Shown piece by piece: positions 8,265 to 21,897 of a stretch of DNA of 64,000 bases (position 1 is its first letter; each line of letters begins with the position of its first letter). Below the pieces are notes generated by a model. That model was not told the DNA's origin. It worked only from the letters and a program-made list of their open reading frames with translations, and searched no databases. Both the position numbers and the translations under genes were made by a program. Source of the stretch: Parcubacteria group bacterium (GTDB lineage Bacteria > Patescibacteriota > Minisyncoccia > Moranbacterales > UBA2206); contig JBAYLE010000004.1 of NCBI GenBank assembly GCA_041664225.1, positions 10,640 through 74,639 on the forward strand, read 5' to 3'.

Positions 8265-9158
8265 ATGAAACATGAAAATATATTAAAAACAATCGGCCAT
8301 ACTCCGATGGTAAAAATTAACAGAATAAATTCGAACAGAAAAATAAATATCTACGCAAAAATTGAGGGTACAAATCCGGGCGGCAGCATCAAGGACCGGA
8401 TCGCACTCAAGATGGTTGAGCAGGCCGAGAAAGAAGGCAAGCTCGCAAAAGACAAAACGATTATTGAAGCGACTTCTGGCAATACCGGCATTGCTCTGGC
8501 TATGATCGGAGCCGTCAAAGGTTATGCTGTCGAAATTGTTATGAGTAAAGCGGTCTCCGCAGAGCGGATAAAAATGATCAAAGCTTTTGGCGCCAGGGTG
8601 ATTTTGACTGACGCGAAACTGGGGACCGATGGCGCGATCAAAAAAGCGCATGAGCTGGCCGAAAAAAATCCGCAAAAATATTTCATGCCCGACCAATTTT
8701 CCAACAAGTACAATAAAATCGCCCATTACGAAACGACAGCCAAAGAAATTTGGAAAGACACGCACGGCAAGATTGATTATTTTGTCGCGGCTATTGGCAC
8801 CTCCGGAACATTGATGGGGGTCGGAGCATATCTCAAAAAATATAATCCGAAGATAAAAATAATCTCAGCCGAACCGGTGAAAGGTCACTACATCCAAGGT
8901 TTGAAAAATATGGAAGAAGCCATTGTGCCGGCAATTTATAAAAAAGAATTGTTGGATGGCGTAATCATGATTGAAACCGAAGAGGCATTTGAGATGGCCA
9001 GAAAAATTGCAAAATTCGAAGGAATCTTTGTCGGGATGTCGAGCGGTGCGGCCATGTTGGCGTCTTTCAAAATCGCCAAGAAAATCAAAAAAGGCAATAT
9101 CGTCACGATTTTTCCCGATCGCGGCGAAAAATATTTGAGCACGGGCTTGTTTGGATAA
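8265..9158 (+). CDS. cysK: Cysteine synthase / O-acetylserine sulfhydrylase (PLP-dependent)
   Basis: GGSIKDRIALKMV (PLP lysine), TSGNTGIALA, GTSGT motifs. Confidence 0.9.
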   Translation: MKHENILKTIGHTPMVKINRINSNRKINIYAKIEGTNPGGSIKDRIALKMVEQAEKEGKLAKDKTIIEATSGNTGIALAMIGAVKGYAVEIVMSKAVSAERIKMIKAFGARVILTDAKLGTDGAIKKAHELAEKNPQKYFMPDQFSNKYNKIAHYETTAKEIWKDTHGKIDYFVAAIGTSGTLMGVGAYLKKYNPKIKIISAEPVKGHYIQGLKNMEEAIVPAIYKKELLDGVIMIETEEAFEMARKIAKFEGIFVGMSSGAAMLASFKIAKKIKKGNIVTIFPDRGEKYLSTGLFG

Positions 9159-10374: not shown

Positions 10375-11869
10375 TTGGGTTTAAATTATGGCGCAATGAA
10401 AAATGTTGAAAATAATGATTATCGAGTGAAGATGTCGAGGCATTTGAAGCAAAAAAAACGAAAAAAGATCATTCTTTCAAAGAGATACTTGAAGGCCAGG
10501 TGGAAGCATTTTCTTAGTCAGGATGTGGACGGAATCTTATTGATAGAGGGAGTAGGGGTAATCGATCTGCAAAAAAAATATGGCACCCCACTGTTTATTT
10601 TGATTGAAGAAGAAATACGCGCAAAGGTGCGTGAATTTATTCACGCATTCGATTATGTTCCATTTAAGATGCGATATGCATCAAAATGCAATTCAAATTT
10701 AGAGGTTCTTAGAATTATTAGGGAAGAAGGAGCTGAATTAGACGCGAGTAGCATCGGAGAAATCATTCTTGGCTTACTAGCTGATTTTTTACCCGAGCAA
10801 ATAAACTTTACTAATTTGTATAAAACTGAGCAGGATATTATGTTTGCTGCCTCTGTTGGGGTACACTCGATAACTCTGGATTCTCTGGAAGAGCTAGATA
10901 TGGCCGTTACTATCTCTGAAAAATTCAAAAAAAGTATCCCAATAATGGTGCGGGTTAATCCAATGATTCACGAGGGTAAGTATAATACGCAACATCAACA
11001 ATACGGCATACCACACGCATATATACGGGGGGGCGTTGATAAAAATAAAAGAGGCAAAATATTTAAAATTAAGAGGATTCCATTTTCATGGATCATATGC
11101 ATACAATCATAGAGGGTATTTTTTGGCAGCGAAGAAAATAACATCCTTGGCGAAATTAGCCGAAAAATATGGACTAAAAATAGACAGCATCGACTTGGGT
11201 GGTGGGTTTCCGATTGAGTCTCCAAAGGCTATGCGACCGGGGAAATATTTTACTTTTAAAGAGTTTGCGGAAAAGTTTGTACCTTTTTTTAAAAAATTAT
11301 GCAAAAAACAAAATCTAGGAAATATTACATTAATATTTGAACCCGGTAAGTCGATTGTGGCTAACTCTGGCATTGGGTTAATACAGGTGGTTAGCCGAAA
11401 GAAATTAAATTCAAAAGAGATGCTAGTTACCAATTCGTCTTGTTATTCTATGTTACCTGACATATTAGTTTCCAAATGTGTTTATGATGTGCTGCCAGCA
11501 AGCAAGATGAAGGCTCCAAGAACGCACGAGTATGATATTGCTGGGTGTACTTGTGATTGCATTGATATTATTAAGAAAAAAGAATTAATGCCTAAGCTGG
11601 AAGGTAACGATTTGTTGGCTGTAATGGATTGTGGCGCGTATAGCTCAGTGTTGAGTTCAAATTTTAATAGTCTCAAGAGAGCACCAGTTATTATGGTAAG
11701 TAGGGATGGCAAAAGTCGACTAGTTCGTCGAGGAGATAGATTCTCCGAGATGTTTGGTCCAGAGTTGGATGTGCTCAAAGTAGCTGATCCGAAAGAGCTT
11801 AAAAAATTTTATAATTTAGCGAGATTAAACATAAATAAAGTTTGGGGAGGGCAAGATAAGAAGCATTGA
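10375..11869 (+). pseudogene. Frameshifted PLP-dependent decarboxylase of the LysA/ornithine-decarboxylase (fold-type III) family
   Basis: N-part (frame 1, to 11112) has YASKCNSN PLP-lysine motif; C-part (frame 2, from ~11036) has FHFHGS, DLGGGFP, EPGKSIVA, CGAYS motifs; +1 frame change located at a G7 homopolymer (11027-11033). Confidence 0.7.
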
Positions 11870-11959
11870 ATTTTCAAGGCATTGATTGGATTATAATTTA
11901 CTAAAAAGTTACATAAAAAAGCATGCGTTTGACAGTTTTCCATGTATATAATAAAATTA

Positions 11960-12096
11960 ATTTATGAATAAATCACAGATAAACTCACTGCGACGTCGTA
12001 GAAACCCGGAGGCTATGCTCAGAGTTGTTTGTTAGTGTTTAAAATAAGCGAAATTATTTAAAATATTGTCAAACGGCTCCGGTCGTTTGTTTTTGA
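11960..12096 (+). ncRNA. Candidate small RNA / cis-leader, copy A (conserved GTTGTTTGTTAGTGTTTAAA box + terminator)
   Basis: Promoter-like TTGACA/TATAAT around 11929-11955, conserved 20-mer 12024-12043, hairpin 12069-12089 + T-run; homologous to 14197-14332. Confidence 0.3.
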
Positions 12097-12204
12097 TTAA
12101 GAGGTTGACTTTTTTCAAAAATAGGGTTAGTCTTTATTGATGTCGCATTCGCGGCAGAAGTAAATAAATGTCCCTTGACAATATAAAGAAAGAGAGGAAA
12201 AAAT

Positions 12205-14046
12205 ATGACTATCAATAGTATTAAACTGCATATCTTAGGCATAACTCAAGAGGTTATCCAAAGGGTATTAGGAAAGCAAATCAACAATCTGTCAATCAGC
12301 TACCCTCCGGATGTTAAATTTGGAGATTTCTCGATTGAGTTTTTTTCGGTCGTGAAAGAGGAGGTTAAAAGTCTTTTGGGAGGCATTTCCAAGGAAGAAA
12401 TGGGAAAAGAGGAAAAAGAAGCCTACAAAAAGGGCATGGCGAAAGGGATTCAAGACGCTATTGCAAAAATAGCTAAATCTGTTGCCGAAATTCCTGCGGA
12501 CGATGTTATCGAAAAAGTGAGCATCGTTGGTCCATATGTGAATTTCAAAGTTAGAAACTCTGCCTATTTCGGATCAATTTTCTCGGAAGTTATTGAAAAA
12601 GGAGGATTATTCGGAACTTCAAATGTTGGATCAGGACAGAAAGTGATGGTTGAATATCTTTCACCAAACACCAACAAACCTCTTCACCTTGGACATTTGC
12701 GGAACGGATCGACTGGTATGTCAATTTCAAATATCCTCGCATTCTGCGGGTATGACGTTGTGAAGAGCAATCTTGTGAATGATCGCGGTGTGCATATTTG
12801 CAAATCAATGCTGGCTTGGCAGAGGTGGGGCAACGGAGAAACGCCCCAATCAGCGGGATTGAAAGGTGACCACTTTGTTGGTAAATGGTATGTGCGTTAC
12901 AGTCAGGAAGAAGAAAAAGATCCTTTACTCGCTGAAGAAGTCCAAGTGATGCTCAAGAAGTGGGAAGAGGGAGACCCGGAAACGATTGAGCTTTGGGAAA
13001 AAATGAATGGCTGGGTTTATGAGGGCTTTGCCGAAACCTACCGTGACTTCGGGTTGGAATTCGATACGTTTTATTACGAATCGCAAACCTATATGTTAGG
13101 CAAAGACATCATTGAAGAGGGTCTCGCAAAAGGAGTTTTCAAACGGGATGAAAAGAATATAGTTACCTTCTTCTTACCAGAAGAATTTGGAAAAGACAAA
13201 GAAGGTAACGATAAAAGGGTGACAGTTCTGCGTTCTGATGGCACCAGTGTGTATATCACCCAGGATCTGGGAACTGCCCTTAAAAAAGTGGAGGATCACA
13301 AGTTGGACCGTTCGATCTATGTCGTCGGTTCGGAGCAAGTTCACCATTTCAAGTGTCTGTTTATGATTCTCAAGGCCCTCGGTTATGAGTGGGCAGAAAA
13401 TTGCTTCCATCTTTCGTACGGGATGGTTTATCTGCCCGAAGGCAAGATGAAGTCTCGGGAAGGAAAAGTAGTGGATGCTGACAATCTCATCAAGGATGTT
13501 GAGAAAATAGTATCTGGTGAAATCGAAAAAAGAAATCTGGATATTTCTACGGACGAACTTGAAAGGAGGGCGCATATTATCGCAATAGGTGCGATAAAAT
13601 TTCATTTGCTGCGGGTAACCCCTGGCCAGGATATTCATTTTGATCCTAAGGAGTCAGTTTCTCTGGATGGGTTTACTGCCTCTTATTGCCAATATGCCTA
13701 TGTGAGGGCAGCGGCTATTTTGAGGGCAGTGAAAGATTCCACAGATGAAATCGATGATATTGACTTCTCAGTGTTGGGTGAGCGGGAAGAAATTATTCTT
13801 GCTCAGAAGATAATGCAATTTCCCGAGATGATCGAATTAGCTGCAAGGGAATTAAATCCATCGCGTATTGCCAGCCATGTTTTTGAAATCGCTCAGGCCT
13901 TCAGTCAGTTCTATAACAAACATTCTGTGCTTAAGATCGAAAATGAACTGACAAAAAAGGCTCGGCTCGCGCTCGTCAGGGCGACGTCCATTGCGATTAG
14001 CAACGGCTTGCATCTACTCGGGATTGAAACTGTGGAAGAAATGTAA
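12205..14046 (+). CDS. argS: Arginine--tRNA ligase
   Basis: Class I HIGH-type motif PNTNKPLHLGHLRN, KMSK-like GKMKSREG, DALR-type anticodon-binding C-terminus. Confidence 0.9.
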   Translation: MTINSIKLHILGITQEVIQRVLGKQINNLSISYPPDVKFGDFSIEFFSVVKEEVKSLLGGISKEEMGKEEKEAYKKGMAKGIQDAIAKIAKSVAEIPADDVIEKVSIVGPYVNFKVRNSAYFGSIFSEVIEKGGLFGTSNVGSGQKVMVEYLSPNTNKPLHLGHLRNGSTGMSISNILAFCGYDVVKSNLVNDRGVHICKSMLAWQRWGNGETPQSAGLKGDHFVGKWYVRYSQEEEKDPLLAEEVQVMLKKWEEGDPETIELWEKMNGWVYEGFAETYRDFGLEFDTFYYESQTYMLGKDIIEEGLAKGVFKRDEKNIVTFFLPEEFGKDKEGNDKRVTVLRSDGTSVYITQDLGTALKKVEDHKLDRSIYVVGSEQVHHFKCLFMILKALGYEWAENCFHLSYGMVYLPEGKMKSREGKVVDADNLIKDVEKIVSGEIEKRNLDISTDELERRAHIIAIGAIKFHLLRVTPGQDIHFDPKESVSLDGFTASYCQYAYVRAAAILRAVKDSTDEIDDIDFSVLGEREEIILAQKIMQFPEMIELAARELNPSRIASHVFEIAQAFSQFYNKHSVLKIENELTKKARLALVRATSIAISNGLHLLGIETVEEM

Positions 14047-14089
14047 AACATTAGCCGATTTGTTTAGTCAGAAAACGGATTTCTAGTAA

Positions 14090-14118
14090 AAAGCCCTGCT
14101 TTTTATAAGCAGGGCTTT
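14090..14118 (+). terminator. Hairpin after argS (12-bp stem AAAGCCCTGCTT/AAGCAGGGCTTT), weak T-run
   Basis: Perfect 12-bp inverted repeat with 4-nt loop. Confidence 0.5.
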
Positions 14119-14161
14119 CCCAAATTTATGCGAATTTCAACTTGTTATGCCTGTAACAATA

Positions 14162-14189
14162 TTGACAAAAAATTAATCCTTGTTATACT
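14162..14189 (+). promoter_or_regulatory. sigma70-like promoter TTGACA-16-TATACT
   Basis: TTGACA 14162-14167, TATACT 14184-14189. Confidence 0.5.
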
Positions 14190-14196
14190 TGGAAAA

Positions 14197-14332
14197 ACAA
14201 TAAACATGCAACACACAGCTCCAATAGTAGGCCACAGTAGAGTTTCAGATAAAATTCAAGGTTGTTTGTTGGTGTTTAGTTTAAATTAATTGAATACTGA
14301 CAAGCGACCGTAAGAGTCGCTTTATTTTTTTG
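14197..14332 (+). ncRNA. Candidate small RNA / cis-leader, copy B (GTTGTTTGTTGGTGTTTAGT box + terminator)
   Basis: Conserved box 14261-14280; hairpin gcgac-cgtaaga-gtcgc 14304-14320 followed by TTTATTTTTTTT. Confidence 0.3.
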
Positions 14333-14373
14333 TTTATTGCAATATTGACAATTAATAAGAGGAGGGTGAAAAG

Positions 14374-14853
14374 TTGAAAAAATGGGAAATCCTATCAATG
14401 ATGTTACAAGGAGAGGAATCGATAATGGGCTATCGGAATTCTTCGGATAGACTCAAAACCCAGTATGAGAATGATTTAGCAGCTATAATTGAGGATGCAA
14501 GGGGAAATATTATAGCCTTTTCAACTCTTTGGGAAACTGAAAGTCCTGATTGGTTGGAATTAGGATCAATATGGACTCATCCCGATTATAGAGGGCGAGG
14601 CTTGGCATCACGTGTGTTTGAGGCTTGTGTTAGAAAATACAAGCAAAAAAATCTTAAAGTCTTTACGATAACACACAATTCAAGAATTGTTCATCTTCTT
14701 AAAAAATATGGATGGCAAGAACGAGGTACTTTGACCTGGGATAAAGTTCCCTTTAGTGTTACTTGCGGTCCATGTGATCGCATCCATGAAAATTTCAAAG
14801 GAACTTGCGTCTTTAAGGCCGTAACTTCAGAGTGCAGGTTGTTTCATGATTAG
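14374..14853 (+). CDS. GNAT family N-acetyltransferase
   Basis: Motif A HPDYRGRGLASRVFEA. Confidence 0.8.
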   Translation: MKKWEILSMMLQGEESIMGYRNSSDRLKTQYENDLAAIIEDARGNIIAFSTLWETESPDWLELGSIWTHPDYRGRGLASRVFEACVRKYKQKNLKVFTITHNSRIVHLLKKYGWQERGTLTWDKVPFSVTCGPCDRIHENFKGTCVFKAVTSECRLFHD

Positions 14854-14933
14854 GATTGAGGGCGATCATCAATTAATTGATAATCGCCCTTTGTATTTTT
14901 ACATTAATAATTTTTTAATAAAATTTAAAAAAA

Positions 14934-15935
14934 ATGAAATATTCAAAAAAAAGACATCTATTGCAACAACTCCCCACAGGAGAGGAGCACTTGATTTTTT
15001 CATACCACTTTAAGGGGAGTAAAAAGGGTCCGAAAATTTATTTACAGGCCAATCTTCATGGACCAGAAATTTTCGGGACATTTTTGTTGGGTAATTTAAT
15101 CAATTACTTGGAGAATAAAAAAGATTTTCCCGGTGAGGTTATAGTAGTTCCCTGCGCTAATCCGATAGCAGTTAACTCTGTAGCTTACAATTCTATTATT
15201 GGAAGATATAATTTGCAATCAGGAAAAAATTGGAATAGAAATTTTGATGTTGATGCCGAATTTAAAGATCATGGAGAGGAAAAAAAATACTATGTCAAGC
15301 AATTGAAAGAGAGCAGTCTTCCGATTGAAAAAAGGATTTCAGCTATATTGAAACTAATAAGTTCCAATGCTGGTTATATTATAGACATACATACATCGGG
15401 ATCGGAGAGCATAGTGCATTTGTTTACATTTGCCGAATCAAATGAAGTATTTCTTCCGCTTAAGGCCCAAGTGCATATTAACCTTAATTATGATGGTGCC
15501 GTAGGCGCCTTTGATGAATCTAAGGTCGTACCGTTTGTCAATTCATTGTCTAAGTCTGAACTGCCGCATGTTTGTACATGGGAAGCATCTCGTCATGGAC
15601 ACATGAACCAAGAACAAATCGGGAAAAAAACTAAAGAACTTATTAGGTTTTTAGAATCAGTTTGGGTGAAAAATAAAGTAAAGCGTAAAGTTTTACCGAA
15701 AATATTTTCAATCGACAATTCTGATTATCTAGTTTCTCCCGCCAGCGGTTATTACTGCTGGAGAAAAAATGCCGGCACAATCATCAATAAAGGAGAAGTT
15801 TTCGCTGAAGTTTATCAACCATCATCAAATAAAAGAATAGAACTCAGGGCTGATTTTAAATTTATTTTAATTGCTAAATATGGAATCGGAGCTATTGGAA
15901 GAGGTGAACAGATCGGCTGGATGGCTCGATATTAG
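14934..15935 (+). CDS. Succinylglutamate desuccinylase / aspartoacylase (AstE/AspA) family zinc deacylase
   Basis: LQANLHGPEIFG (His-x-x-Glu zinc site) and IDIHTSG motifs typical of the family. Confidence 0.6.
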   Translation: MKYSKKRHLLQQLPTGEEHLIFSYHFKGSKKGPKIYLQANLHGPEIFGTFLLGNLINYLENKKDFPGEVIVVPCANPIAVNSVAYNSIIGRYNLQSGKNWNRNFDVDAEFKDHGEEKKYYVKQLKESSLPIEKRISAILKLISSNAGYIIDIHTSGSESIVHLFTFAESNEVFLPLKAQVHINLNYDGAVGAFDESKVVPFVNSLSKSELPHVCTWEASRHGHMNQEQIGKKTKELIRFLESVWVKNKVKRKVLPKIFSIDNSDYLVSPASGYYCWRKNAGTIINKGEVFAEVYQPSSNKRIELRADFKFILIAKYGIGAIGRGEQIGWMARY

Positions 15936-16194
15936 TTGTCTCTTGATATGTAGCAAGGCTAACTCAAAGCAAAAATGGTTTTCCGGTCGCGCGGAGGCGG
16001 AATGCATCAAGACGGAGAATGGGTGGACATCCAGTCGCTAATAAAATTTCAGGCCATAATCCTCAATTTTTTGAGAGAAGCGTAGTGTTTTTTAAAGGGA
16101 TGATCAATTGGCCATCCTTTTTGCTAACTAAATTTCTTTGTGCTATTATTTGGCTAGTTTTAAATAAGGGCATTTTATTTCTAATTTTAACACT

Positions 16195-17469
16195 ATGCAA
16201 AAAGAATCAATTTATAAAAAAGTAGCTTCTCATGAAGCAAAAAAGGGAGAATTTAGTAAATGTCTTCTGCTCTACTCAGGCGGCTTGGACACATCTGTAA
16301 TGCTGAAATGGATTCAGGAAAATTATGAGTGCGAGGTTGTTGCTCTAACGATAGACATTGGCCAAACAGCCGATGATCTCGAATCTATAAAGCAGAAAGG
16401 ATTAAATTTGGGAGCAAAAGATGTAATTATTTATGATGCAAAAGATGAGTTTGCTGATGTTCTTCTTGTTGAGGCAATCAAGGCAAACTCTGATTATCAA
16501 GGAGGCTATGCCTTAAGCACACCGCTTGGAAGGGTTATTATTTCTAAAATTGCGATAGAAGTTGCTAAGCAATATGGTTGTGAGGTTATCGCTCATGGCT
16601 GTACCGGCAAAGGAAATGATCAGGTGAGATTTGAGGGATATCTAACAACGCTGAATCCCAAAATAAAAACTATCGCACCGGTCAGGGAGTGGTCAATGGG
16701 AAGACAAGAAGAAATTGAATATGCGGAAAAACACGGGATTCCAGTAAAGCAACAGAAGGATAAACCATATTCTTACGATGAAAACATGTGGGGAAATACT
16801 GGAGAAGGAGGGGAAATAGAAGATCCAAAACTTATTCCACCACTAAAAAATATTTTACAATGGTGTAAAACTCCCGAGGAATCTCCTGATAAAGAAGAAA
16901 TTATGGAAATTGAATTTTATCAAGGTGTGCCAATTTCATTGAGCGGCCAAAAAATGAAACTGAGCGAGTTAATCATGCAGTGCAATAAAATTGGGGGCTC
17001 GCATGGCGTTGGCGTTTTTCATCTTATTGAAGATAGGATTGTTGGCTTAAAAGTAAGAGGAATTTACGAGAATCCGGGAGCGAGTATTCTGATTGCTGCT
17101 CATAAAAAGCTGGAACAATTAGTATCCACCAGAGAAGAGAACGAACTCAAGTCATTTATAGACAATAAATGGGCGTACTTAACATATGGTGCGAAATGGT
17201 ATGATCCAGCCATGTATCATATCCGTGCCTATATCGGCAGTCAAAATAAAAAGGTTACTGGGAAAGTGAAAGTGAAGCTTTTCAAGGGTAACATAACCGT
17301 GGTTGCGCTGGAATCACCCTATTCACTATTTAATGCTGATCTCGCAACATTTGAAAAAAATGCAACATTCAATCAAAACGCATCTGCCGGATTTATAGAG
17401 ATATATAATCTTGCTCAAAAAACAGCATTTAATGTGTACAGTTTTGAGGATGATTTGTTAAAAAAATAA
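16195..17469 (+). CDS. argG: Argininosuccinate synthase
   Basis: PP-loop LLYSGGLDTSV; length and C-terminal domain consistent. Confidence 0.9.
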   Translation: MQKESIYKKVASHEAKKGEFSKCLLLYSGGLDTSVMLKWIQENYECEVVALTIDIGQTADDLESIKQKGLNLGAKDVIIYDAKDEFADVLLVEAIKANSDYQGGYALSTPLGRVIISKIAIEVAKQYGCEVIAHGCTGKGNDQVRFEGYLTTLNPKIKTIAPVREWSMGRQEEIEYAEKHGIPVKQQKDKPYSYDENMWGNTGEGGEIEDPKLIPPLKNILQWCKTPEESPDKEEIMEIEFYQGVPISLSGQKMKLSELIMQCNKIGGSHGVGVFHLIEDRIVGLKVRGIYENPGASILIAAHKKLEQLVSTREENELKSFIDNKWAYLTYGAKWYDPAMYHIRAYIGSQNKKVTGKVKVKLFKGNITVVALESPYSLFNADLATFEKNATFNQNASAGFIEIYNLAQKTAFNVYSFEDDLLKK

Positions 17470-17473
17470 CTTA

Positions 17474-18688
17474 ATGAAAATAAAAAAAGCTAATAAAAAA
17501 ATTTGGCAATTTTCAGGCGCCTCATTGCTGCATCCATTAGTGGAGAAATTTACGGTAGGGGATGATTATTTGTTTGACCAAAAACTCATTCCGTATGACA
17601 TTCAAGCAAGCTTAGCCCATACTGAAATGTTGAAAAAAATTAAAATTATTACAAATACTGAATTCGGTACTCTTAAAAAGGGACTGCAGGAGATCTTAAC
17701 GCAATGGGAGAAAGGAAAATTTGTTATACGACAAAACCAAGAAGACGGGCATACTGCAATCGAACAATTTTTAACTGATAAGTATGGAGAAGTTGGAAAA
17801 AAAATACATACCGGAAGAAGCAGAAATGACCAATCGCTTGTTATGTTGAGGCTGTATATGAAGAATCAGCTGCTTCTTATTGAAAAAATTGTTACTAAAA
17901 TTGAGAAATCATTAGACAAAAAAATTAGGAAAACAAAAGATATTCCAATGCCTGGATACACGCATATGCAAAAAGCAATGCCAACAACAGTTGGAGTATG
18001 GCTAGATTCTTACTTATCCGCGATTGATGACTGTTTGTTTTTAATAAAAGCTATTAAAAAGATGATCGACCAAAATCCCCTAGGTTCTGCTTCTGGATTT
18101 GGAATTATTAATTTTCCACTAGATAGAGATTTGACTACTAAAATTTTGAAATTTGCAAAAACACAAAAAAACCCGATGTATTGCGGATTTTCCAGAGGAT
18201 ACTTTGAAAATATCGTTCTGCAAACATTGTCGAATATTATGATAATCTTTGGGAGATTTGCAAATGATATGGTGATGTTTACAACCCAAGAATTTAATTT
18301 TTTCTCATTACCAGACAATTTTACAACAGGATCTTCTATTATGCCTCAAAAAAGAAATTACGATGTTTTTGAAATAATGAGAGGAAATACAAAAGTCTTT
18401 TGTTCTTTTCAGAATCAAATTCAAAATATCATATCTTCACTCGGAAGTGGTTATAATAGAGATTTGCAATTGACCAAAAAACCTTTTGTTCTAGCAACCA
18501 GCTTATGCGTGTCTACCTGTGAATTAATGCTAGAAATAATAAGTAATTTTAAAATTCATAAAAAATCCCTAAATAAAGCAATGACAAAAGATCTTTTTAT
18601 TACAAATGAAGTTTATGAATTGGTCAAGGATGGTAAAAATTTTAGAGATGCCTATTTGGAAATTAAGGAAAAATGGAATAAAAAATAA
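17474..18688 (+). CDS. argH: Argininosuccinate lyase (fumarate-lyase superfamily), somewhat short
   Basis: HTGRSRNDQ and signature GSSIMPQKRN. Confidence 0.85.
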   Translation: MKIKKANKKIWQFSGASLLHPLVEKFTVGDDYLFDQKLIPYDIQASLAHTEMLKKIKIITNTEFGTLKKGLQEILTQWEKGKFVIRQNQEDGHTAIEQFLTDKYGEVGKKIHTGRSRNDQSLVMLRLYMKNQLLLIEKIVTKIEKSLDKKIRKTKDIPMPGYTHMQKAMPTTVGVWLDSYLSAIDDCLFLIKAIKKMIDQNPLGSASGFGIINFPLDRDLTTKILKFAKTQKNPMYCGFSRGYFENIVLQTLSNIMIIFGRFANDMVMFTTQEFNFFSLPDNFTTGSSIMPQKRNYDVFEIMRGNTKVFCSFQNQIQNIISSLGSGYNRDLQLTKKPFVLATSLCVSTCELMLEIISNFKIHKKSLNKAMTKDLFITNEVYELVKDGKNFRDAYLEIKEKWNKK

Positions 18689-18833
18689 GCGGTTTTAGCG
18701 CACTTCGAAAACGACTTTTTTGACTAACATTTTTTCATGTAAGTCTTTTTTTTTGGGCGTTAATTATTTGACACAAGACAGTCCCAGTGCTAATTTTCTT
18801 GGAGGGAGGGCAGGCCTTTAACAACAAAATGAA

Positions 18834-20141
18834 ATGGAGGTTAAGTCAATGGAGCTTAAAGATTTAGCAGCAGAATTGGTTAGTATTGACACAGAAAGTA
18901 AGAAGTCCACGGTCAAGATGGCAGATTTCATCTGTGGTTATCTGGAGAGACGCGGTTTTGTTATCGAGAGATATCCATATTGGGACAAAATTAACAAAGT
19001 CGAAAAGGTGAATGTCATTGCGCGGAAGGGAGGACAGGAATCCAAACTGGTTTATTCCGGGCATATGGATACGGTTCCGTCCGGACCAGGATGGAAAACT
19101 CCCTCACTCACTCTCGTTGAAAAAAATGATAAAAAAGCTGGTGAAATATTTCAAGGCTTAGGTATCGCTGATATGAAATTCTTTCTCGCTGTTGCCATGA
19201 AAGCTGGCGAGGCCATTTCAACGGCAGAACTAAAGCACCCATTCGCTTTATGTTTCACGAGTGATGAGGAAGTTGGCTGTATTGGAGCAAGAAAACTTCG
19301 TGATGCTGTAAAACAACAAGGAAGAACAATCGGAGAATATATTGTTGTGGGCGAGCCGACAGAGTTTAAACCCGTGTATAGTCATAAGGGCTATATATCT
19401 CTCGAAGTTGTTATCGGTGTATTTGAGAAGGAGGGCAGGACAACTGGAGACAAAAGTAACCCATGCCATAGTTCTGATCCTAGCACAACGACAAATGCTG
19501 TCGAAAAGGCTCTATGTCCAGTAATCGATGAGCTTTGTAAATTCAGAGAAAATTTGGAAAATGTTCCTGATCCTCGCTTTAAACCGCCTTTTGCGACTAT
19601 GAATATTGGAGGAGACATTCATATAGGGAGAATAATCAAAAAGAAGAAAGAAAAGAAAGATTCTGCCGATGAAGATGATTATGAGTATATCCTGGATAAG
19701 GTCGCAAAGAATATTATTCCTCGGGGTTTCAGGGTTTATAGCGATATTAGACCACTACCAGGGCAGGTTCCAAATGATCTCGTAGAAATATTGGAATCAA
19801 ACATCAAAGAAAGGATTAATGGCATAAAAACTGCGGTTTCTAACGAGGAGTTCTATATTAAGGTTGGATGCCCGACGGGTATATCCGTCTCTCATCCAAT
19901 GGAGACTTCAAAAGATTCTTTGTTACTCAAGTCCATCGAAGAGATTAGCGGCTTTCAGGCCGGTACGGCTGCCTATAACACGGAAGGAGGCATATTTAAC
20001 CGAGCCGGAAGCGAATCAATTATTTGGGGACCCACTAATATTCTTCAGGCGCATAAGGATAATGAATATGTCCTTGCCGAGTTGTTCAAAGAAGAAACTG
20101 TGGAAAAATACATACAACTCATAAGGCGTATGTGTACCTAA
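18834..20141 (+). CDS. M20-family metallo-deacylase (acetylornithine deacetylase ArgE / DapE-like)
   Basis: YSGHMDTVP, GIADMK, DEEVG metal-ligand motifs; genomic context with argG/argH. Confidence 0.75.
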   Translation: MEVKSMELKDLAAELVSIDTESKKSTVKMADFICGYLERRGFVIERYPYWDKINKVEKVNVIARKGGQESKLVYSGHMDTVPSGPGWKTPSLTLVEKNDKKAGEIFQGLGIADMKFFLAVAMKAGEAISTAELKHPFALCFTSDEEVGCIGARKLRDAVKQQGRTIGEYIVVGEPTEFKPVYSHKGYISLEVVIGVFEKEGRTTGDKSNPCHSSDPSTTTNAVEKALCPVIDELCKFRENLENVPDPRFKPPFATMNIGGDIHIGRIIKKKKEKKDSADEDDYEYILDKVAKNIIPRGFRVYSDIRPLPGQVPNDLVEILESNIKERINGIKTAVSNEEFYIKVGCPTGISVSHPMETSKDSLLLKSIEEISGFQAGTAAYNTEGGIFNRAGSESIIWGPTNILQAHKDNEYVLAELFKEETVEKYIQLIRRMCT

Positions 20142-20145
20142 GGAG

Positions 20146-21213
20146 GTGTCAAAAATGGAAATCGTCAGAACAGTAAAGGAAATCCTTGATTATGTCAGAC
20201 AGTTCCGAGGAAAAATTATTGTTGTCAAAGTAAACAAGGATGTCTTGGCAGACAAGAAAAAACTCAACAATGTTATTCGGGACATGATTCTGTTGAAAAG
20301 CGCCGGGATTAAGATTGTCGCGACTCACTCGGAAGCTCGATTTACGCGTGACCAATGGCTCAGTCTCGAGCCCGTGTTTCTGGGTATTTCCACAATTTCG
20401 GGCATTACCGGCCAAATGGCAAAGGGAGCGACTCCGGTTGTTTATTTTGAAGAAACTCCGAAACTTTCGAGTGAAAAGGCAATTGTCAGTCTGGCCATAA
20501 AATTAGGCGCGGTAAAAATTGTCTATGTCACAAATTTCGATGGTATATTTGAGTCAGGGAAAAGATTGATTCATGAGATGGATGTTGAGCAGGCCAGAGA
20601 GCTTCTGAAAAAGTCTGGAGCTGTCACAGGGGAAGCAAGAAAACGTGTTGAGGTTGCGCTGATAGCCTGCGGACAAGGAATCCCGCGCATTCATATTATC
20701 GGGGCCAGAGAGGGAAGCTTGCTGAAAGAGATTCTGACCTGTCATGGAACAGGCACAATGATTTATAAAAGCATGTATCAGGAAATCGAACCGGCCAAGA
20801 AAAGTGAGGTAGCTGAAATATTCGGGATAATCAAGGAAGCGATCAAGCAAACATCGATTACCTTCGAACGTATCAAGAAAAAAATCGATAACTTCTGGGT
20901 CTTTGTGGTGGATGAGCAAGTCCATGGATGTATGTTGATCGAAAATGACACCGTTAGCAAAATATGTGAAATATCCTATCTAAGTGCTTCAGAAATGTAT
21001 AAAGATTCGCAGGTTTTCAAACGGCTCATTCTGTCTGCGCTCGAAAAGGTTCCGACTGATTTCAAATGCGTGTTTTTGTCTGTCGAAAAGAACACAAACT
21101 TGCTGGGCATTTACCCGTGGTTTAAGGAGCTTGGTTTTGCTAAAAGATTACCGGCGCAATGCGGGATAGCGGGAGAAAATCATTTTGAAGCATGGATAAG
21201 GATAACTGAATGA
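20146..21213 (+). CDS. Amino-acid kinase domain + C-terminal GNAT-like domain (N-acetylglutamate synthase ArgA-like / ArgB-like)
   Basis: N-terminal carbamate/amino-acid kinase fold signature (KIIVVKVNKDVL…), C-terminal acetyltransferase-like domain. Confidence 0.65.
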   Translation: MSKMEIVRTVKEILDYVRQFRGKIIVVKVNKDVLADKKKLNNVIRDMILLKSAGIKIVATHSEARFTRDQWLSLEPVFLGISTISGITGQMAKGATPVVYFEETPKLSSEKAIVSLAIKLGAVKIVYVTNFDGIFESGKRLIHEMDVEQARELLKKSGAVTGEARKRVEVALIACGQGIPRIHIIGAREGSLLKEILTCHGTGTMIYKSMYQEIEPAKKSEVAEIFGIIKEAIKQTSITFERIKKKIDNFWVFVVDEQVHGCMLIENDTVSKICEISYLSASEMYKDSQVFKRLILSALEKVPTDFKCVFLSVEKNTNLLGIYPWFKELGFAKRLPAQCGIAGENHFEAWIRITE

Positions 21214-21237
21214 AAATAAAAGCAGGATCATTTTGAA

Positions 21238-21276
21238 GCCGGAATTTGGTGTCTACCAAATTCCGGCATTTTTTAT
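21238..21276 (+). terminator. Strong intrinsic terminator
   Basis: Perfect 13-bp stem GCCGGAATTTGGT/ACCAAATTCCGGC, loop gtct, then ATTTTTTAT. Confidence 0.85.
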
Positions 21277-21343
21277 CAAAAAGTGCCAAAGAAGGATTTA
21301 TAGAAACAAAAAATTGAATTATTTTAAATAATTTAATTGTATC

Positions 21344-21372
21344 TTGATTAGATAAAAAGAATAGTGTATAAT
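21344..21372 (+). promoter_or_regulatory. sigma70-like promoter TTGATT-17-TATAAT (with GTG just upstream of -10)
   Basis: TTGATT 21344-21349, TATAAT 21367-21372. Confidence 0.55.
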
Positions 21373-21393
21373 CTAATGACGATTTTAAAAGGT

Positions 21394-21897
21394 ATGCATA
21401 TGAAAAATGAAATATCTGACAAAAACATTAAAATAGTTTCCGCAAAGCGTAAAGATTGTACGCATATTAGTCGGTTTATAAACGATAAATCGATGGGCGG
21501 AATTCTTCTGAAAAGAAGTCCTAAGCAGATTCTGGAAATGTGGAAAAATTTTTCGCTTGCCATGGACGGAGAAAAAATTATCGGGATAGTCGGTTTTAAA
21601 GTCCGGCTCGACGATCAACCGGAAATAATTTCTTTGGCGGTCAGCGATGTTTATCGCGGAATGGGAATCGGCACTAAATTGGTTGAACACAGCTTGGGAA
21701 AAATAAAGGAGCGTGGTTTTAAAATAGTCTTTGCGCTAACAACAGCGACACGGCTGTTTGAAAAACTGGGCTTTAAAAAAGTTTCTATAAAAAAATTTCC
21801 CCTTAAAGCTTGGGAAGATTGCAGATATTGTCCGCGCAATCTTGGCGGACCGGACAACCCGCTGTGTGATGAAGTCGCATTGAGCAAAAGATTGTAA
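21394..21897 (+). CDS. GNAT family acetyltransferase with C-terminal Cys cluster (CRYCPRNLGGPDNPLCD)
   Basis: VYRGMGIGTKLVEH motif A; ORF-track start 21364 is a GTG inside the -10 box so a downstream ATG (21376/21394/21400) is more likely. Confidence 0.65.
   Translation: MHMKNEISDKNIKIVSAKRKDCTHISRFINDKSMGGILLKRSPKQILEMWKNFSLAMDGEKIIGIVGFKVRLDDQPEIISLAVSDVYRGMGIGTKLVEHSLGKIKERGFKIVFALTTATRLFEKLGFKKVSIKKFPLKAWEDCRYCPRNLGGPDNPLCDEVALSKRL

Follow-up and report, generated by a model that had tools for sequence, protein, structure and literature searches.

Expression of argS, the gene for arginyl-tRNA synthetase, is probably coupled to the level of charged tRNA-Arg in a Parcubacteria group bacterium by a ribosome-mediated leader-peptide transcription attenuator. 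The element (unit 1, 11929–12094) stands directly upstream of argS on a 64-kb stretch of genomic DNA (contig JBAYLE010000004.1), the whole of which is called the window below, and a second unit (unit 2, 14162–14331), lying ahead of an arginine-metabolism operon, is evidently a paralogue of the first. Sequence and comparison with relatives provided the features themselves, their conservation, the pattern of open reading frame (ORF) and arginine codons, the pairing potential and the gene linkage. As far as sequence can test it, unit 1 fits the classical leader-peptide attenuator in every particular: a short ORF is kept as an ORF across orthologues (as it is not in unit 2, nor in the variant unit of one relative, L086), arginine codons are clustered within it, an intrinsic terminator lies between it and the controlled gene, an antiterminator and that terminator are mutually exclusive, as are the antiterminator and an upstream helix, and the arginine codons (nt 28–39), a conserved box (nt 59–78) and the leader stop codon (nt 70–72) have the geometry of an attenuator.

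The two units were originally predicted as a pair of promoter-to-terminator elements flanking argS and sharing an exact box, and all of these components were recovered where they had been placed, far beyond chance expectation. The 18-nt box, GTTGTTTGTTRGTGTTTA, has exact copies at 12024–12041 and 14261–14278, both on the + strand; with up to three mismatches allowed, shuffled sequences gave an expectation of 0.15 matches, compared with three found (the third, with three mismatches, is on the minus strand within argS). The two sigma70-like promoters are the two best sites between 9 and 18 kb, each matching at 11/12 positions, and the hairpin terminators fall at 12070–12089 (followed by T5) and 14302–14322 (followed by a T-rich tail). 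From predicted start to T tract the units span ~132 nt (unit 1) and ~136 nt (unit 2), close to the ~135 nt proposed, and each is followed by a gene start: that of argS at 12205, 110 nt past the T tract of unit 1, and that of a GNAT acetyltransferase ORF at 14374, ~42 nt past unit 2. The units are homologous, as claimed: a single covariance model recovers both, and each has a promoter, helices and a terminator, although they are barely alignable outside the box and the terminator arm. The copies are not equivalent, unit 2 being without a leader ORF. The original prediction also missed the short ORF, with its cluster of arginine codons, in the stretch between promoter and box.

In unit 1 (all features on the + strand), promoter P1 (TTGACA at 11929–11934, a 17-nt spacer, and TAAAAT at 11952–11957) is followed after 6 nt by the ATG of an argL-like ORF of 23 codons (11964–12035) encoding MNKSQINSLRRRRNPEAMLRVVC, whose stop codon, TAG (12033–12035), lies inside the box. 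Codons 10–13 are four consecutive arginine codons, CGA CGT CGT AGA (11991–12002), the putative regulatory codons. Four regions of the RNA can be distinguished. Region 1, ACAGATAAACTC (11975–11986, codons 4–8; of CAAACAA type in orthologues), pairs with the box to give helix 1:2; region 2 is the box in its longer form, GAGTTGTTTGTTAGTGTTTA (12022–12041); region 3 is AAUAUUGUCAAACGGC; and region 4 is the 3′ arm of the terminator. The antiterminator hairpin, 2:3, covers 12024–12077 (12024–12046 with 12055–12077), and its many G.U pairs make it strand-specific. The intrinsic terminator, 3:4, is CAAACGGC-TCCG-GTCGTTTG followed by T5 (12070–12094). Beyond it lies argS (12205–14046, 613 aa), the gene proposed to be under the control of unit 1.

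The leader ORF in relatives

Loci of relatives, given here as L-numbers and distinct from window DNA, were gathered by a scan of genome contigs and by exact look-ups of ArgS homologues. The closest of these homologues carry labels such as Parcubacteria group and Candidatus Azambacteria, by which the bacterium of the window belongs in the Patescibacteria. The leader is present before argS in L082, L083, L001, L084, L085, L087/88 and L089/90, where ArgS is 89–72% identical to that of the window; these seven further orthologous loci represent four more lineages of Patescibacteria, or candidate phyla radiation (CPR). A partial leader, cut by the contig end, was recovered in L081 (ArgS 94% identical). 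At ArgS identities of ≤~72% (L002–L007, L091–L093, and 73 Bacteroidota and other loci) the leader was not found upstream of argS.

In all eight argS leaders, that of the window included, a 17-nt spacer separates TTGACA from a −10 hexamer and the ATG comes 6 nt after that hexamer; the 6-nt gap and −35/−10 layout recur in a unit-2-type copy in L001 and in L099. Because the gap between −10 hexamer and ATG is invariant, the transcript probably starts at the AUG (at the A, or within 1–2 bases of it), and the leader mRNA is probably leaderless. An ORF of 23 codons ending in the box was found in 7/8 argS leaders, length and frame in L082, L083, L001, L084, L087 and L089 being the same as in the window; in L085 the ORF stops six codons earlier, at 17 codons. 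Across the 57 nt before the box there were no indels among the argS leaders, compared with indels of 1, 2, 3 and 5 nt in the non-coding loop, despite a reversed order of sequence conservation: orthologues share 45–71% identity in the ORF before the box and 89–94% in the box, loop and terminator. Within the ORF, identity was lowest at third codon positions (0.49, against 0.67 at first and 0.56 at second positions). Conservation of the box is accounted for by its three roles, as partner of region 1, as partner of the 5′ arm of the terminator and as carrier of the leader stop codon.

Each leader has 2–5 arginine codons, clustered at codons 9–16 in the 23-codon argS leaders, against a background in which arginine accounts for 3.46% of codons in the genes of the window, CGT and CGA being the rarest of its arginine codons. 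The cluster takes many forms at the nucleotide level (CGA CGT CGT AGA; CGA AGA cag CGT; CGA CGG ata AGG tct AGA; CGT CGT; CGT CGA CGG) and in the peptide (RRRR, RRQR, QRQR, RRIRSR, RRQ, RRR), and its position moves by 1–2 codons. By all appearances it is selected as codons and not as a nucleotide sequence. A scan of ~1.1 Mb of loci, on both strands, with a strict pattern (promoter, 5–8 nt, ATG, at least three arginine codons in four, and a T run) returned argS leaders only.

Between the terminator and argS the window has a possible weak second promoter, P2 (TTGACT-17-TAGTCT, 12105–12133, + strand), recognised from sequence alone. A P2-like promoter is seen in the window and its closest relatives and may supply basal expression of argS; it is absent from L087 and L089, where no promoter intervenes between terminator and gene, so that argS in those two loci must depend on read-through. 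The same stretch holds two further conserved features. The P2-like promoter is followed by 6 nt, an ATG and a 6-bp hairpin, TGTCGC-ATTC-GCGGCA (12105–12156 in all). This hairpin is a 5′ stem-loop conserved in the argS mRNA; L001, L085, L086, L087 and L092 show compensatory changes in it, and loci that have no arginine leader have it as well. A motif, YTTGACAA, is conserved 20–25 nt before the argS start codon (window 12175–12181, L001, L086, L087, L089 and L092); it is too near that start to serve as a −35 element for argS, and it is the reverse complement of UUGUCAA in region 3, with which it could form a long-range pairing, or it could be a protein-binding site.

Competing helices and the proposed switch

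The minimum-free-energy folds of both units (z = −3.0 and −3.1) contain a long G.U-rich hairpin in which the AT-rich spacer, together with the terminator's 5′ arm, is paired to the box; this makes the box the 5′ strand of an antiterminator. When the 5′ part was folded alone, the partner of the box in 9/10 aligned units was instead a 5′-proximal stretch rich in A and C, which in most orthologues reads CAAACAA. Helices 1:2 and 3:4 are compatible with one another, and helix 2:3 excludes both. Pairing was quantified in an alignment of ten sequences (A3), with controls in which the partner strand was slid: 94.5% of cells were paired in helix 1:2 (36–49% in slid controls), 97.1% in helix 2:3 (38–54%) and 91.1% in helix 3:4, the slid controls for all helices spanning 17–58%. 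The compensatory changes whose presence the original prediction had proposed checking were found to a limited extent, as several G.U↔A-U exchanges and a few double changes, amounting to thin covariation among close sequences.

The effect of a ribosome was modelled by hiding 28 nt around it, either with its A site at the cluster's first arginine codon or with the ribosome at the stop codon. Masking at the arginine codons gave the antiterminator in 9/9 box-carrying units (the eight argS leaders and the second unit of L001), and masking at the stop codon gave the terminator in 6/9. We infer the regulatory logic from its parallel in the trp, his and pheST attenuators: plentiful Arg-tRNA would allow the ribosome to reach the stop codon and cover the box, leaving 3:4 to form and transcription to end at 12094. 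With Arg-tRNA scarce, the ribosome would stall at codons 10–13, covering region 1 and leaving the box free, 2:3 would form and the polymerase would read through into argS. If the leader were not translated at all, 1:2 and 3:4 would form together, again giving termination.

Paralogous elements and a unit lacking the proposed sensor

The further copies whose absence would have counted against a family do exist: besides the argS leaders of relatives, four relatives have Arg-rich paralogous leaders ahead of GNAT or PALP operons. In L001 a second unit, on the minus strand before a GNAT gene, has TTGACC-17-TACAAT, 6 nt, ATG, an ORF encoding MKNIQTTNLSIRRSSAKTSFEVVC, the box GTTGTTTGTTAATGCTTA and a terminator. 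A search with the GNAT protein returned only three homologues, one of them from the same metagenome-assembled genome (MAG); the other two led to L098 and L099, where Arg-rich leaders (MNHRRNPSFRKRLR and MRKTVATTKINRCTRRTHNLMRVLCAVE, respectively) stand before the GNAT homologue, with diverged boxes and each with its own co-varying antiterminator and terminator. The fourth case came from the covariance model, for which the alignment served as input. Within the window, on the + strand, this model found only the two units, both of which are among its training sequences; it scored the L086 variant at 47.8 bits and detected a new element at 8539–8674 of L007, a Berkelbacteria locus (40.5 bits, E = 4.6e-5), with an ORF encoding MNIIRRRNLLNRLRLLDGNLT ahead of a PALP/ATP-grasp/MR_MLE operon. 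No matches were obtained in 0.88 Mb of other loci. A metagenome scan with the two-part pattern TTGTTTGTTR-N18-45-AATAYTGWCAARCG gave four matches, none with a promoter, ORF or terminator and all attributable to chance, and the same pattern had no match in viral contigs. The family is thus rare or absent in the metagenome and viral collections scanned, the JGI and Logan contigs that carry it being evidently missing from the metagenome set.

In the window, argS is followed, ~45 nt past its stop codon, by its own likely terminator hairpin (AAAGCCCTGCTT-TTTAT-AAGCAGGGCTTT, 14090–14118), so unit 2 begins a new transcription unit. The genes after unit 2 (14374–18688, + strand) encode the GNAT acetyltransferase, an AstE/AspA-like deacylase, argG and an argH-like lyase, and beyond the lyase lie an M20 (ArgE-like) peptidase and an amino-acid kinase, with two GNAT genes in all (14374–21897). 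This region constitutes a partial arginine pathway in a CPR-type genome, unusual for a lineage that is generally described as being without amino-acid biosynthesis. In several relatives (L081–L084 and L092) a cluster encoding a PALP protein, a PreATP-grasp ligase, an MR_MLE (enolase-type) protein and an M20 peptidase directly follows argS; the cluster in L007 (8539–12389) has its own Arg-rich leader attenuator and is a candidate arginine-regulated pathway. Tentatively, and with the balance tipping slightly against it, leaderless arginine leader peptides joined to a shared terminator/antiterminator module might make up a CPR ‘arginine ribulon’, controlling argS, residual arginine synthesis and the PALP/ATP-grasp/MR_MLE/M20 cluster. 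Neither a tRNA nor a tmRNA gene was found in the 64-kb window.

Unit 2 (all features on the + strand) keeps its promoter (TTGACA-16-TATACT, 14162–14189) and all three helices, including an antiterminator of 22 perfect, uninterrupted bp (14260–14281 with 14288–14309, the box at 14261–14278 included) and an intrinsic terminator, AAGCGAC-CGTAAGA-GTCGCTT followed by TATTTTTTT (14302–14331). The leader region between them (14196–14259, with region 1 at ~14202–14219) is decayed. The canonical start reads AAC AAT AAA where unit 1 has ATG AAT AAA; the distance from start position to box is 65 nt, not a multiple of three, and there are stop codons in the canonical frame; the leader stop codon within the box is replaced (TAG>TGG); and no run of arginine codons occurs in any frame. 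The idea that the box encodes one peptide in both units of the window was rejected, as it is read in different frames. Unit 2 is probably a decayed copy, or a rewired one, that is constitutive or otherwise regulated. Similarly, L086 (55–209; ArgS 78% identical) has a promoter, an antiterminator-like helix and a terminator, with no ATG-initiated ORF and no arginine codons.

Unit 2 could instead be a working attenuator, and not a relic, if an out-of-frame ORF of 27 codons (14206–14289, encoding MQHTAPIVGHSRVSDKIQGCLLVFSLN) sensed the decoding of its single AGA codon, at position 12, or a general slowdown of translation. Its ATG (14206) falls within region 1, and the ORF runs through the box to a stop in the loop of the antiterminator. 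In masking folds, a stall at codon 12 yielded the antiterminator, and a ribosome placed on the stop codon yielded the terminator; the intact helices, with 2:3 a perfect duplex, would also be expected of a functional switch. We nevertheless regard this as unlikely. The ATG has no Shine-Dalgarno sequence and lies ~10 nt downstream of the predicted 5′ end, the ORF has only the one arginine codon, no orthologue of it was retrieved (the sole close GNAT match being from the same MAG), and the altered canonical start points to decay. A neighbouring gene is also frameshifted: the ornithine/diaminopimelate/arginine decarboxylase gene upstream (10375–11869) is split into two overlapping ORFs, with the frameshift near 11010–11110, and L082 and L083 have intact orthologues of 490 aa. 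The split gene is either a pseudogene or the product of an assembly indel, and local decay or assembly error near unit 2 is accordingly plausible.

Alternative readings and known attenuators

Several observations weigh against unit 1 being an arginine attenuator, or at least against the simplest form of that proposal. Where transcription starts, that the leader is translated, that the ribosome stalls and what regulation follows are themselves points that we infer. Two of the leaders (L084 and L087) have only two arginine codons, and the conserved P2-like promoter past the terminator would permit transcription of argS independently of unit 1. Region 1 lies upstream of the arginine codons, so that a ribosome stalled at the last of them would not fully cover it. 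In the other 3/9 units with the ribosome at the stop codon, the full-length optimum has region 1 paired, over a long range, with the box-like 3′ arm of the terminator, and L098 and L099 still form the terminator with a ribosome stalled at their arginine codons, failing to reproduce the predicted switch. A shuffle control, weak for the helices because the sequences are close, was notable for 2:3 only and not significant for 1:2 or 3:4; with covariation so thin, conservation, the slid controls and the G.U/A-U exchanges are what mainly argue for the helices. Finally, unit 2 and L086 indicate that the RNA module can persist, and perhaps work, without the proposed sensor.

These points have to be set against how the alternatives fare. 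The original prediction offered a small RNA (sRNA) family, or a novel cis-acting attenuator or riboswitch class, and held that the units are not T-boxes. The last point is borne out, the Rfam T-box model (RF00230) scoring 12.9 bits against a gathering threshold of 93 (E = 8.3), and cis-acting attenuation is supported by the unit always being directly upstream of, and co-oriented with, argS or an arginine-linked operon. A novel riboswitch class or sRNA family is disfavoured: the ~60 nt from promoter to box are the least conserved part of the unit, which is wrong for an aptamer. A metabolite riboswitch was rejected for want of an Rfam match and on account of the coding-like variation of the segment before the box, and an ArgR operator (ARG box) in TGAATAAAT, after the −10 hexamer, was rejected because its half-site spacing is wrong and its sequence is not conserved. 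More broadly, the units might be switches that sense a ligand or factor, whether as riboswitch, as T-box-like tRNA sensor or through an antiterminator protein bound at the box, the ORF being incidental. Retention of the box or antiterminator, together with the terminator, in unit 2 and L086 would suit such a switch, as would near-invariance of the box even in L085, where it is untranslated. The idea is nonetheless remote: a scan of the whole window with Rfam gave no hit at gathering thresholds (and a permissive scan of 11880–14400 gave chance-level matches only, the T-box among them), the one sensor-sized segment, from start to box, is conserved least of all and is structurally conserved in helix 1:2 only, the three overlapping constraints account for the invariance of the box, and L098, L099 and L007 have co-varying replacements of the box yet keep the arginine ORF.

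It is also very improbable that the units are independent sRNA genes, with the box as a GcvB-like seed for C/A-rich targets and with argS and the GNAT operon transcribed from their own promoters. Each unit is indeed discrete, from promoter to terminator, the box is G/U-rich and the most conserved segment, and a P2-like promoter lies past the terminator of unit 1; terminated attenuator RNAs are also reported to act in trans, as with rnTrpL in Sinorhizobium (PMC6614838). The box, however, is sequestered in a long helix in every predicted fold, the constant position and orientation of the units before arginine-linked genes would be unexplained, an sRNA has no need of a conserved ORF length, frame and arginine codons, and L087 and L089 lack the promoter that argS would require. 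The terminated leader RNAs, with their G/U-rich box, might act additionally in trans. That the short ORFs encode functional small basic peptides, the terminator merely ending a small protein gene, is scarcely credible, even though ORF length and frame are conserved and the peptides have similar ends (MxK...QT... at the N terminus, GVVC at the C terminus). Those ends coincide with RNA regions 1 and 2, the middle of the peptide varies freely apart from its arginine codons, and in L085 the ORF ends six codons early with the ‘VVC’ nucleotides identical, conservation therefore being at the level of RNA.

Attenuation by leader peptide, the reading preferred here, is familiar from the amino-acid operons of E. 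coli and Salmonella (trpL, hisL, pheL, leuL, thrL, ilvL). Features in common are a short ORF with a run of cognate codons, an intrinsic terminator before the regulated gene, a four-region RNA with exclusive 1:2, 2:3 and 3:4 pairings, and a stop codon so placed that a terminating ribosome masks region 2. Unlike the classical attenuators, of which the pheL leader-peptide attenuator is an example (PMC3082878), the present one would be arginine-specific and in a CPR host, its leader ORF is apparently leaderless and has no Shine-Dalgarno sequence, and its arginine codons lie just downstream of region 1 instead of inside it. Rfam 15 contains no arginine-specific attenuator family, and a non-exhaustive survey of the literature found no arginine-specific leader-peptide attenuator of the terminator/antiterminator type, and none upstream of argS. 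Synthetase genes can be controlled in this way: in E. coli, pheST is under the pheM leader. A leader with histidine codons precedes hisS paralogues in bacilli (PMC2965389). In both, as here, a short ORF in which codons for the cognate amino acid abound, and then a terminator, precede the synthetase gene; amino acid and lineage differ, there is no sequence similarity, and in the present case the module is also duplicated before biosynthetic operons.

Two further systems share the sensing principle. The leaderless polycysteine short ORFs of mycobacteria, described as a ‘Cys ribulon’ (bioRxiv 10.1101/834739), are likewise leaderless sensory ORFs with codon runs for one amino acid, lying before several loci of its metabolism in a regulon coordinated by the ribosome; here, a canonical intrinsic terminator and antiterminator are present, so control would be transcriptional. 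In the Salmonella speF leader (PMC6386406), orf34 has consecutive arginine codons at which ribosome pausing senses arginine and, as proposed here, pausing in an upstream ORF chooses between alternative mRNA structures. Unlike the present case, speF control is reported to work by Rho-dependent termination, unfolding of the ribosome-binding site and RNase G sensitivity, and not by an intrinsic-terminator attenuator, and its target is ornithine decarboxylase. T-box leaders, the usual control of argS in Firmicutes, have in common with unit 1 their place before a synthetase gene and a terminator/antiterminator switch that answers to tRNA charging. They differ in that no specifier stem or T-box sequence is present here, and sensing would be through the ribosome and not by direct binding of tRNA.

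Attenuation is textbook knowledge for tryptophan, histidine, phenylalanine, leucine, threonine and isoleucine/valine, and to our knowledge gene regulation in CPR/Patescibacteria, which are largely uncultured, is almost unknown. What is described here is a familiar mechanism, for a new amino acid and in little-studied bacteria, and its interest, which is moderate, comes mainly from the arginine specificity, the apparently leaderless ORF and the CPR host. If the proposal is correct, unit 1 would be without precedent both as a classical attenuator specific for arginine and as a case of leader-peptide attenuation in CPR, extending attenuation to arginine and to a leaderless leader ORF. Unit 2 and L086 illustrate how the sensor of an attenuator can be lost while its RNA switch is kept. 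As markers of a regulon, the elements would tie the uncharacterised PALP/ATP-grasp/MR_MLE/M20 cluster and the GNAT genes to arginine metabolism, and an attenuator that can be predicted from sequence would offer a direct handle on how CPR bacteria sense their amino-acid supply.

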